Positions 6,654 to 8,732 of a DNA stretch of 32,000 nt are shown piece after piece (within the stretch, counting starts at the first letter, position 1; every line of letters begins with the position of its first letter). The stretch lies in contig OZ246409.1 in assembly GCA_965231035.1 (NCBI GenBank), forward strand, positions 1 to 32,000, in the 5' to 3' direction. Both the position numbers and the translations under genes were made by a program. The notes under the pieces are model-generated. The model had not been told where the DNA came from, did not search any database, and saw only the letters and a program-made list of their open reading frames with translations. This DNA is from an uncultured Muribaculaceae bacterium. GTDB taxonomy: Bacteria; Pseudomonadota; Alphaproteobacteria; Rs-D84.

Positions 6654-6679
6654 AAAAATCCCGCACTTGCGGGATTTTT
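6654..6679. terminator. Bidirectional terminator between fabI and paralog P1
   Basis: Stem ATCCCGC/GCGGGAT (6658-6664/6669-6675), loop ACTT, A-run and T-run on either side. Confidence 0.85.
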
Positions 6680-7094
6680 AATAAGTGTTTTGGTATTGCT
6701 TTTTAATTAAAATCTTTGGCATAAGACCACTAATAAAAGTATTTGGTTTTACTTTTTCCCAAGTTTTTATTGCCTCAAGCATTGCATAACCGTTTTCAGA
6801 ATTTTGGTCGTTTCTATAAGAATATATTTTAGTTAGTACATTATAAAATATATCTATAAGTTTTGTAACACCTTTGTCAAATTGTTTAAATCCATTTGGG
6901 GTTATTCCATGTCCCAAAACCATAAAAGGAGTTTCTTTGAAATAATAGGGTTGTTTCATACTTTTTACAATGTTAATGTTTTGTTGGATTTTGTTTTCAG
7001 TTCCATCAAATACGTAAAGTTTGCTGGTTTCCAAAACGGTAATAACAGAATCAAAAAAATTTTGAATTTTAACTTCTAAATTTACAGTCATCAT
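6678..7094 (-). CDS. Paralog P1 of an unrecognised family (138 aa)
   Basis: ATG 7094 has AAGG upstream. The motifs IQNFFDSVITVLETSK, NGFKQFD and TWEKVKP are shared with P2-P4. Confidence 0.7.
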   Translation of the reverse strand: MMTVNLEVKIQNFFDSVITVLETSKLYVFDGTENKIQQNINIVKSMKQPYYFKETPFMVLGHGITPNGFKQFDKGVTKLIDIFYNVLTKIYSYRNDQNSENGYAMLEAIKTWEKVKPNTFISGLMPKILIKKQYQNTY

Positions 7095-7122
7095 TTCACA
7101 ATTACCTTTGTTGTGATAAATA

Positions 7123-7617
7123 TTATGCGGCCAGAGTGCGTTTTTGTTCAACAAGTTCTTTTTTTACGGCTTCTTGAATTGCCTTGGAAATTTCACCTGA
7201 TTTTTTCTTTCTAAAGATTCCAAACAACTCTGTTGCTGGAAATTTAAATTTTGCTTTGGTTAATTTCCAATTATCTATAAAATCTTGAACTTTGCTTTGA
7301 CGTTCTTTTTCTGTACCATTGCCGTTATAATATTCGTCAATACTCATAATTACAAAATTAGTAGAGTCATACAGTGAGTTGTCATCATTTCTGACAAATC
7401 CGTCTTTTGTTAGTATTGAATTATCTGGACTGTAGCGGTTTTTAAAAGCGGTGTTAACTTTTGGATTATTTGACATTTTTGTAAGAGTTAAAATATTTTT
7501 CTCAATAGCATCAGTCTTGAATTTGTTATATTTATAATTCTTACTTTCTTCTAGAAACTTGATAGCGGATTTAAAGAAATCGTTAATCATTTTTTCGTAT
7601 TTATTTTCTTTTGACAT
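7123..7617 (-). CDS. Paralog P2 of an unrecognised family (164 aa)
   Basis: GAGGTGG SD. Motifs are INDFFKSAIKFLEESK, DGFVRND and NWKLTKA. Confidence 0.7.
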   Translation of the reverse strand: MSKENKYEKMINDFFKSAIKFLEESKNYKYNKFKTDAIEKNILTLTKMSNNPKVNTAFKNRYSPDNSILTKDGFVRNDDNSLYDSTNFVIMSIDEYYNGNGTEKERQSKVQDFIDNWKLTKAKFKFPATELFGIFRKKKSGEISKAIQEAVKKELVEQKRTLAA

Positions 7618-7645
7618 ATTGCCACCTCGTTATTTGCTTGATAAC

Positions 7646-7674
7646 ATTTTATCACTTTTTTATGCCATTTCACA
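7646..7674 (-). promoter_or_regulatory. Extended -10 promoter of P2
   Basis: Minus strand TGaTAAAAT (7654-7646) with a weak -35 TGTGAA. Confidence 0.45.
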
Positions 7675-7678
7675 GCAT

Positions 7679-7703
7679 AAAAAAAACCGCCAAAGACGGT
7701 TTT
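7679..7703 (-). terminator. Terminator of P3
   Basis: Stem AACCG/CGGTT (7685-7689/7697-7701). On the minus strand it is followed by T8 (A-run 7679-7686). Confidence 0.7.
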
Positions 7704-7705
7704 AA

Positions 7706-8155
7706 TTAGGCATGAACCGGTTGTCTTCCAGAACCAAAAAAATTACCGATATCATTAACAATACGATCAAACTGCACCTTTGCTTTTTTAACAAAAATAC
7801 CGTTTGGTTTAATTTTGTCCCAAACCTCCAACGAATTCAAAAGATTATTTGTAACCGATGAATTGTTTTTTGTTTCACAATATTTGGATATTTTAGCAAT
7901 AACATCAAGAAATATTGAAAATATATAGTTATTACCATTTTTTTCGAAGTTTCTGAAACCGTATGAAAACATTAATTCGTTAGGTTTGTTTTTAAAGTAT
8001 TCTCTGAAATTAAACATTTTTCTGACTAATTCTATGTTTTTTTGAATTAACAATTTTTCTTTTTCATCGAAAACATAAAGTTTACTTAGTTCCAAGGTTT
8101 CTATTACAGATACGAAAAAAGCTTGGATTTTTTCATCAGTGTTGTGATCTATCAT
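7706..8155 (-). CDS. Paralog P3 of an unrecognised family (149 aa)
   Basis: GAGGA SD. Motifs are IQAFFVSVIETLELSKLYVFD, YGFRNFE and VWDKIKP. Confidence 0.7.
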   Translation of the reverse strand: MIDHNTDEKIQAFFVSVIETLELSKLYVFDEKEKLLIQKNIELVRKMFNFREYFKNKPNELMFSYGFRNFEKNGNNYIFSIFLDVIAKISKYCETKNNSSVTNNLLNSLEVWDKIKPNGIFVKKAKVQFDRIVNDIGNFFGSGRQPVHA

Positions 8156-8185
8156 TTTACAATTTCCTCATCTTGATAGTTCATA

Positions 8186-8214
8186 ATTATAACACATTTA
8201 AATTGAATAATCAA
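8186..8214 (-). promoter_or_regulatory. Promoter of P3
   Basis: Minus strand TTGATT (8214-8209), 17-nt spacer, TGtTATAAT (-10 at 8191-8186). Confidence 0.65.
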
Positions 8215-8216
8215 AT

Positions 8217-8240
8217 TAAAACCTGCTAATGCAGGTTTTA
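8217..8240 (-). terminator. Hairpin terminator of P4
   Basis: Stem AAACCTGC/GCAGGTTT (8219-8226/8231-8238), loop TAAT. The U-tract lies partly within the stem. Confidence 0.55.
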
Positions 8241-8732
8241 ATAGGTAAGTTCAGGTTGACTTGTAGAAAATAAATTCTTGAACTTGGAAATATTCAAAAA
8301 CCCTTTTAAAGACTTTTGTTTATAAGTATTTTTTTCCAACATGGATTCTGGTAACTGTAACTCTTTTCTTATATTATTCCATGTGGTTATAGCATTTAAA
8401 AGATTTTTTTCGGACGAAGTTGTCTTGTTTTTATAATAATAATCACACATCTTAGATACAACATTAGTAAATGCCAAAAATAACGAGTTCAAATTGGGAT
8501 CAAATTGGTTAAACCCAGTGGACGTAATTGATGTTTCGCATCCGCTTTTTAAGTTTGAATACGTAGAAACATAATTTGGAGTTCTTTTCAAATTTCTGAC
8601 AAGAATTATATTCGCATTAATTCTGGGCCATTCTGTATTATCAACTTTTGTTTTACTTTTTTTAAGTATAAATATTACAGAATCAAAAAAGTTATCAATA
8701 ACGATTTCTGTATCAACTTTTGTATTTTTCAT
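8238..8732 (-). CDS. Paralog P4 of an unrecognised family (164 aa)
   Basis: Motifs IDNFFDSVIFILKKSK, TGFNQFD and TWNNIRK; AAGG SD. Confidence 0.7.
   Translation of the reverse strand: MKNTKVDTEIVIDNFFDSVIFILKKSKTKVDNTEWPRINANIILVRNLKRTPNYVSTYSNLKSGCETSITSTGFNQFDPNLNSLFLAFTNVVSKMCDYYYKNKTTSSEKNLLNAITTWNNIRKELQLPESMLEKNTYKQKSLKGFLNISKFKNLFSTSQPELTY

Follow-up and report, generated by a model that had tools for sequence, protein, structure and literature searches.

The interval between fabI and ligA in contig OZ246409.1 holds four consecutive open reading frames (ORFs), here called p1 to p4 from fabI towards ligA (Table 1), which by sequence comparison are true paralogs of a real family. This family is restricted, as judged from its recovered relatives, to a few uncultured Alphaproteobacteria of low guanine-plus-cytosine (GC) content known from metagenome assemblies alone, and it matches nothing in the libraries searched. 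The stretch of DNA analysed, called the window throughout, comprises the first 32,000 nucleotides of the contig. Structure models predict small four-helix bundles with a flexible C-terminal tail, and we tentatively favour the idea that the proteins are effector-like binding proteins exported by a secretion system that reads C-terminal signals.

Four paralogs of one family

A sequence-only reading of this DNA had listed four minus-strand ORFs in the fabI-ligA interval; their coordinates are exact, and public gene calls give the same lengths (138, 164, 149 and 164 aa for p1 to p4). A longer form of p1 (6678-7154, from a TTG start) was rejected, as it overlaps p2 and lacks support from the family alignment. 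The three motif blocks proposed in that reading (FF.S.I..L..SK, GF and W) are real: they are where the invariant residues of the four-way alignment fall, namely F13, F14, S16, I18, L21, S24, K25, G68, F69 and W112, and across 47 family members conservation reaches 90% or more for the FF pair, the L, the I and, within GF, the F.

Aligned over their whole cores, p2, p3 and p4 are 27-38% identical to p1. Pairwise BLASTP gave E-values of 3e-19 for p1-p3 (40% identity), 1e-16 for p1-p4, 7e-10 for p3-p4 and 1e-7 for p2-p4; it was weak for p1-p2 and p2-p3, and leave-one-out profiles recovered both of these pairs. When p2 was left out, it scored E=2.5e-5 against the hidden Markov model (HMM) of the other three and 5e-11 against all sequences of the A and C types described below. 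An HMM built from distant relatives alone scored all four proteins between 5e-18 (p4) and 3e-7, for a nominal database of one million sequences.

These results bear on the objection that the ORFs might be chance reading frames in an AT-rich spacer, with no functional genes among them. The regional GC content is indeed very low and no ORF has a named homologue, but we give this explanation next to no credence. It is refuted by the significant kinship of the four proteins with one another and with about 34 representative proteins elsewhere, by confident AlphaFold2 (AF2) models, by a ratio of nonsynonymous to synonymous variation (pN/pS) of 0.07 in p4, and by the correct placement of Shine-Dalgarno sequences (SDs), promoter-like sites and terminators.

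A lineage-restricted family with a predicted helical fold

That the four proteins fit no recognised family stands for the libraries searched (Pfam, NCBIfam, PHROGs, PADLOC and the PDB, the latter by sequence and by fold). With hmmscan, none of the four reached threshold against Pfam, NCBIfam, PHROGs or PADLOC; the PHROG matches all had E >0.002 and were inconsistent, and the PADLOC defence models returned 0 families for all ten proteins scanned. Searched one by one against Pfam, the 47 family members gave nothing at threshold and no recurring weak match. Neither the four proteins nor the 47 members matched the Pfam Imm*, SUKH, SMI1, DUF600 or other immunity families, and no DNA-binding antitoxin domain of the RHH, HTH, AbrB or Phd type was found in the Pfam and NCBIfam scans. 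Pfam gave no match to BID or another described translocation domain, and the phasin family was absent from the Pfam matches listed for the four proteins and from the most frequent weak matches of the 47 members. A profile search of all PDB sequences returned nothing below E 0.2. On the nucleotide side, tblastn with p4 found no match in 72,556 plasmid or 50,697 phage records, and a degenerate DNA pattern for FFDSVI..LE.SK had no match in JGI metagenomes; a word-index search with the four paralogs returned only the four proteins themselves.

Relatives were recovered by an exhaustive HMM search of 1.84 billion cluster representatives, which yielded 34 proteins at E <=1e-3, 13 of them at E <=1e-10. 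One of the 34, P0031 (3391 aa), was discarded as an FG-GAP/RTX protein with a chance match of 44 residues; the remaining relatives are 137-184 aa long, except P0024, a 291-aa fusion of two family domains. Their consensus reads MIDYDxTIxxFFxSV..L ... NP..Y ... GF ... AF..VL.AI..YY ... LL.AIK.W.Y..S...FKDF.F.F. Few relatives carry a source name, and these are Alphaproteobacteria metagenome-assembled genomes (MAGs) and one probably mis-binned 'Muribaculaceae' MAG.

The AF2 models of p1 and p4 reached predicted local distance difference test (pLDDT) values of 78.7 and 80.9, respectively, with the core of p4 (residues 8-125) mostly above 90. Both describe a bundle of four long helices spanning about 120 residues, in which helices 2 and 3 are joined by a long loop that has the conserved GF as its anchor. 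After the bundle comes a flexible Lys-rich tail of 15-40 residues, modelled as disordered (low confidence). Foldseek returned nothing below E 0.5 for either model against the PDB, or for the better one against the viral models of BFVD, and thus no known fold was matched in these two collections. The isoelectric point lies between 7.8 and 10 in all members but one partial sequence, and 26 of 28 members have no net negative charge over their last 20 residues. In agreement with the sequence-only reading, neither a signal peptide nor a transmembrane segment was found, and no 19-residue window is hydrophobic enough for one (maximum Kyte-Doolittle mean, 1.18).

Across the 47 members, the positions conserved at 90% or more are hydrophobic only, and there is no conserved polar or catalytic residue. 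Because the conserved residues all belong to the hydrophobic core and the surfaces vary freely, we regard these four-helix bundles as non-enzymatic, probably binding modules.

A fold of this kind could also serve a structural purpose: the bundle and an amphipathic tail rich in F, L and K would bind a membrane or granule, in the manner of a phasin, an apolipoprotein or another abundant coat or peripheral membrane protein. The absence of conserved catalytic residues agrees with this, as do the alternating hydrophobic and basic stretches at the start of the tail (KGFLNISKFKNLF in p4, ELFGIFRKKK in p2 and FKDFxFPFKS in the gut clade described below) and the near-consensus promoter-like sites, each gene having an SD and a terminator, which suggest high expression; the array genes are probably well expressed. 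Yet no phasin or other coat family was matched, the tail is predicted at low confidence only, the alternating pattern was seen by eye and nothing in these genomes points to storage granules, so that we consider a coat function quite improbable.

The fabI-ligA gap in related genomes

The four genes are also present in a second strain of the same species (L001/L002; 94-98.6% nucleotide identity), and at least three further species were found whose LigA and FabI are about 80% identical to those of the window. In the fabI-ligA gap, L008 has three copies (6978-7442, 7547-7981 and 8001-8555) and L009 two (7384-7884 and 6895-7320). On the short contig L022/L023 two copies lie beside fabI, and in L018/L019 a B-type gene is found between a C-type gene and an upstream fragment that matches the family HMM weakly (E=0.006). 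The gap is devoid of the family in both outgroups: that of L010 (LigA 64% identical) holds a lipoprotein gene only, and that of L015 (LigA 69% identical) an aspS-like gene, recognised by reading its translation, and a 143-aa ORF. Copy number in the gap is therefore 0, 0, 2, 3 and 4, the two partial contigs having at least two and at least three, and the comparison of this interval across relatives reveals a variation from 0 to 4.

Neighbour-joining with bootstrap distinguished three subtypes. Subtype B comprises p2, L008 7547-7981 and P0005 (99% bootstrap); subtype C comprises p1, L008 8001-8555, L009 6895-7320, P0008 and L019 (80%), with p3 as its sister (92%); and subtype A comprises L008 6978-7442, L009 7384-7884 and P0007 (82%). 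The position of p4 is that of the subtype A genes of L008 and L009, and its placement with them in the tree is unsupported. Neither L008 nor L009 has a counterpart of p3. Each near-clade species sampled has at least subtypes A and C, and the order from ligA to fabI, A ... B-C, is identical in every species. Because of this constant order, we interpret the array as three old subtypes with occasional gain (p3) and loss (B in L009), semi-conserved and not rapidly reshuffled, which arose in the fabI-ligA gap of one clade of low-GC Alphaproteobacteria. The suggestion that the array is accessory thus holds in part: copy number does vary among relatives, but old subtypes are kept in a fixed order across species.

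Between the window and the L008 and L009 genomes, the best-matching array counterparts are 38-45% identical, with LigA and FabI at 79-81%; the subtype A proteins of L008 and L009 are 35% identical to each other. On a Poisson scale, the array diverges roughly four times faster than LigA and FabI. Between strains the array genes are under short-term purifying selection, as measured in p4, which differs from its L001 counterpart by 15 synonymous and 4 nonsynonymous changes and whose pN/pS is comparable to those of ligA (0.03) and a penicillin-binding protein (PBP) gene (0.05). The segment 6534-8265, which covers p1 to p3 and the 3' end of fabI, has zero nucleotide differences from L001, whereas its flanks differ at 45 of 1,426 sites (~3.2%), a rate at which ~55 differences would be expected in the segment. 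Recent recombination or a sweep could have produced this patch, or else the MAG contig is a mosaic of strains.

Between p4 and ligA the window carries a minus-strand gene for a 120-aa lipoprotein (8833-9195), with the lipobox FSAC, a hydrophobic C-terminal stretch and no family match. It is 62% identical to the sole gene in the L010 gap and is absent from L008, L009 and L001/L002; in the latter, window positions 8806-9297 (~490 bp) are replaced by ~40 unrelated bp.

Gut-derived relatives, a partner family and a shared C-terminal ending

In gut-derived relatives the family occupies another housekeeping gap, between typA and serS, in which the number and order of genes vary. The family gene stands alone in L026, is accompanied by one gene of a second, partner family in L007 and L020 and by two partner-type genes in L003-L006, and is again found with two partner genes in L025; by genome, the numbers of partner to family genes are 2:1, 1:1, 1:2 and 0:1. 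In L021 the gene at 2059-2934, encoding P0024 with its two family domains head to tail, adjoins typA and a partner gene. The partners form a second orphan family of 152-196 aa, seen only in such MAGs, and no partner gene was found in the window clade. Comparison of the two families with hhalign gave E-values of 0.015, 3.8e-4 and 3.3e-4 (probability 3-38%, 30-50 columns); the best alignment (E 3e-4, probability 38%) covers 30 columns comprising helix 2 and the NP..Y motif, which is suggestive at most of homology.

Where TypA and SerS of two gut-clade genomes are 82-95% identical, their family members share 24-34% identity, a divergence that would reflect either extremely fast evolution or the retention of different old paralogs in each lineage. 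Four assemblies of one gut species carry identical copies of the family gene, even synonymous changes being absent, an identity that is partly by construction, as the loci were found by exact protein match. In these assemblies the partner gene L003 7420-7983 (187 aa) differs from those of L004, L005 and L006 by 17-20 nonsynonymous and 5-8 synonymous changes, and all the amino-acid changes lie within residues 6-64. Some of these variants in L003 agree with the neighbouring 152-aa paralog, which makes gene conversion possible.

The sequence-only reading had likened the array to immunity-protein or orphan-antitoxin arrays, in which each paralog would neutralise a different toxin variant delivered by competitors. 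Tandem immunity strings with conserved sequence blocks are documented (PMC9484751; PMC12247911), and the genes analysed here are likewise tandem and diverged, encode small soluble helical proteins, have promoter-like sites of their own, vary in copy number among relatives and diverge fast in the long term. In the gut clade, moreover, the family is often co-transcribed with the 152-196 aa orphan gene, which could in principle be a toxin and which shows the burst of amino-acid changes between strains described above. Against such a role, none of the positive markers tested (toxin, recombinase, domain, strain variation, DNA blocks) was found. The array is flanked only by fabI, ligA and, in the window, the lipoprotein gene, and the same holds for L001, L002, L008, L009 and L022. 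As had been noted from the sequence, no cognate toxin or secretion gene is visible in the window, nor does any near-clade locus read contain, within the array or next to it, a toxin or its remnant, a recombinase or a secretion gene, and the intergenic gaps of 28-88 bp leave no space for a toxin gene. No Imm/SUKH, PADLOC or antitoxin family was matched, and neither the plasmid nor the phage records yielded a relative. The old subtypes retain their order without shuffling; both strains of the window species carry the same four genes, the repertoire differing only between species. No long DNA repeats between copies were found in the array, and DNA matches between paralogs extend to 26 nt at most (73-85% identity), in contrast to the recombination blocks of esaG. 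Finally, the partner-to-family numbers do not suit obligate toxin-immunity pairs, and the family is confined to one narrow lineage. We therefore regard an immunity or antitoxin function, drawn by analogy, as unlikely.

The family and its partner have similar C-terminal endings. Of 47 family members, 17 have glutamine at position -2 and 30 have K, R or H at -1; for the 15 partner proteins the counts are 10 and 14. Q makes up 4-5% of residues overall. The sequences are related, and the counts are therefore not independent. In the window clade, Q (or E) is found at -4 instead (QLVH, QITH, QLAY, QMAA, ELTY). The idea that the C-terminal Y or H is a by-product of a stop codon placed in a terminator stem was discarded as a general explanation, being true for p4 and p1 only and failing for the positional counterparts in relatives. 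Since the ending recurs in two families encoded side by side, it suggests a shared recognition element.

Proposed function

We tentatively rank first the view that the paralogs are exported, effector-like proteins expressed from individual transcripts. Target binding would fall to the variable helical surface, and the tail, through its recurrent C-terminal Q-x(0-3) ending, would bring each protein to one shared machine. The likeliest candidate for this machine is a type IV or type I secretion system, which would recognise a signal at the C-terminus. Export is placed first because it would account for the missing N-terminal signal, for a tail that is disordered and positive, for rapid divergence and for duplication in tandem. 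It would also account for the genomic setting: GC is low, many ORFs have no family match, the window includes a patatin-like phospholipase gene, and the longest contig measures 848 kb. In Bartonella, positively charged C-terminal tails are described as part of the VirB/VirD4 translocation signal (PMC8714903).

Several observations weigh against export. No secretion-system gene, virB and virD4 included, was found in the 32-kb window or in the related loci read, and the library scans found no eukaryote-like domain. Lys-rich tails are what an AT-rich genome yields by default, and the C-terminal pattern comes from related sequences, so that the counts overstate independent support. Host association is itself something we infer from low GC and many orphan genes only. 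The family is also present in every member of both clades examined and is under purifying selection, which fits a lineage-specific intracellular role equally well.

Such a role is the closest competitor: the bundle would bind a cytoplasmic partner as an adaptor or regulator, the subtypes dividing the job or forming hetero-oligomers, and the tail would dock on an AAA+ protease or chaperone or act as a degradation tag of short-lived proteins. The absence of a signal peptide, the basic isoelectric points, the presence of at least A and C in conserved order in all near-clade species sampled and the purifying selection between strains are all in line with it, and in the gut clade, where family and partner genes are linked in operons, joint action of the two is suggested. 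The C-termini of p2 (TLAA), P0007 (QMAA) and p3 (PVHA) resemble ssrA-type endings such as ClpX tags, and were counted in its favour. It is less easily reconciled with the lack of any DNA-binding or known adaptor domain, with the missing partner gene in the window clade, and with the finding that the family diverges to 24-45% identity while flanking genes keep 80-95%, which is rare for regulators of a fixed partner. An adaptor or proteolysis-tagged regulator fits the data about as well as export does, and we hold it to be possible, if doubtful.

A broader and, in our opinion, rather unlikely proposal is that the family and the gut-clade partner, as two orphan helical families, are the substrate set of an undescribed system, bearing a common C-terminal Q-[K/R/H] mark, and represent either new exported effectors or a new toxin/immunity pair. 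Both families would then be kept in hypervariable housekeeping gaps (fabI-ligA, typA-serS), where duplication, fusion, loss and sweeps would drive their turnover.

Should the proteins prove to be binding modules that are exported or face competitors, they would offer a handle on how a poorly known group of uncultured, low-GC Alphaproteobacteria, sampled from sewage, an anoxic spring and animal guts, deals with hosts or neighbours, and the shared C-terminal ending would then define a testable recognition signal. The family is in addition clean material for a new Pfam entry, with a confident fold model, three subtypes, a fused member and a linked second family, and the fabI-ligA gap illustrates clearly how one fixed site in a chromosome can foster genes that evolve fast.

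Expression signals, composition and other features of the window

Table 1. Array genes and the promoter-like and terminator-like signals around them.
Feature	Position	Strand	Description	Basis
p1	6678-7094	minus	138 aa; subtype C, fabI-proximal copy	ORF
p2	7123-7617	minus	164 aa; subtype B	ORF
p3	7706-8155	minus	149 aa; extra C-like copy, this species only	ORF
p4	8238-8732	minus	164 aa; subtype A by position (ligA-proximal)	ORF
Promoter-like site upstream of p4	8765-8796	minus	TTGACA / TGgTATATT; 10/12 and 9/12 consensus matches, with TG	consensus match only
Promoter-like site upstream of p3	8186-8214	minus	TTGATT-17-TATAAT, with TG; 10/12	consensus match only
Promoter-like site upstream of p2	7646-7673	minus	GTGAAA-16-TAAAAT, with TG	consensus scan
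Terminator-like hairpin after p4	8215-8242	minus	overlaps p4 stop codon	
Terminator-like hairpin after p3	7683-7703	minus		
Bidirectional terminator-like hairpin, p1/fabI (convergent)	6651-6682	both	perfect 15-bp inverted repeat (repeat I7)	

The extended -10 elements quoted in the sequence-only reading (TGATAAAAT, TGTTATAAT and TGGTATATT), the SDs and the two private hairpins are all present in the sequence, although the promoter evidence consists of consensus matches, which are not proof of transcription. Terminator hairpins occur at the positional counterparts in three relatives, those equivalent to the p1/fabI hairpin following the C-type gene in L008 and L009, and extended -10-like elements can be read upstream of several. 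The spacing between p2 and p1 is 28 bp and free of hairpins, and these two genes probably share one transcript. In line with the sequence-only reading, the genes look like separately transcribed modules, as judged from individual signals and their recurrence in relatives, with the p2/p1 pair as a probable exception. The p3 hairpin resembles that of p4 (76% similarity; repeat D4), and the duplication that made p3 may therefore have included the terminator.

The array was described by eye as more AT-rich than its neighbours, and its GC content is indeed 27.9%, compared with 39.9% in fabI, 40.7% in ligA and 36.2% in the window. At third codon positions the gap is nearly gone (0.21-0.26 in the array genes versus 0.29-0.32 in the neighbours), and an equally high AT content is found in window ORFs that match no family, for example 879-1316 and 4768-5304. 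Because the third-position difference is small and these other unmatched ORFs are alike in composition, a foreign origin was rejected; the low GC is better read as that of weakly constrained Lys/Asn/Ile-rich proteins drifting with the genomic mutational bias than as a sign of import.

Other AT-rich ORFs without a Pfam match lie at 1548-2090, 2280-2627, 3833-4126, 13110-14087, 17923-18690, 19019-19426, 25934-27487 and 30008-30634. The patatin-like phospholipase gene occupies 2606-3694, and a GH108 lysozyme with a Mu F-like fragment 175-882. An Rfam scan found two tRNAs and no other RNA. Beyond secG (window past 17646) the alignment with L001 1-1538 stops; there the window has the 255-aa ORF at 17923-18690 and tRNA-Gln, and L001 1-1538 has an N6_Mtase/Eco57I-type methylase gene and a 238-aa ORF.

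Comparison with known systems

The immunity strings of type VII secretion systems in Staphylococcus and Streptococcus (EsaG/DUF600, TsaI, TipC; PMC9484751) resemble the fabI-ligA array in that small, non-identical cytoplasmic paralogs are arranged head to tail, with conserved blocks between diverged stretches and a copy number that varies by genome. However, those strings adjoin a toxin and secretion locus (PMC9484751), and none lies near this array; their blocks are conserved as DNA and drive recombination, whereas DNA identity between copies is negligible here. The array also consists of old subtypes in a fixed order, and no similarity of sequence or fold was found.

The acquired interbacterial defence (AID) and recombinase-associated AID (rAID) arrays of gut Bacteroidales (bioRxiv 10.1101/471110; PMC12247911) are alike in encoding fast-evolving small binding proteins with no toxin beside them, in gut or anoxic communities. 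In contrast to the array, the rAID clusters mix unrelated families (e.g. SUKH), lie on mobile elements with a recombinase and vary between strains; here a single family occupies a fixed chromosomal gap between housekeeping genes, with no plasmid or phage relative found. The sole tyrosine recombinase gene seen looks XerC/D-like and lies among housekeeping genes in the gut-clade loci, ~3 kb off. Type II antitoxins differ as well, since the array proteins have no DNA-binding domain and no adjacent toxin gene was found. As for the fold, the top-ranked, non-significant Foldseek matches were generic up-down four-helix bundles, the talin rod and the FAT domains of FAK and Pyk2, which have the same helix count; with E >=0.6, TM-scores (template modelling scores) of ~0.3 and root-mean-square deviations of 15-24 Å, they provide no evidence of relationship.

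The Beps of Bartonella (VirB/VirD4; PMC8714903, PMC6509941) are large proteins with FIC and BID domains encoded beside virB/virD4, unlike the array proteins of 138-164 aa, which have no BID match and no secretion genes in view. What they share with the array is that they are lineage-specific tandem paralogs of an alphaproteobacterium that have an all-helical module and lack an N-terminal signal; their positively charged C-terminal tail may have its counterpart in the Lys-rich tail of the array proteins, a composition that is also the genomic default. We file the array among lineage-specific tandem paralog families of small binding proteins.

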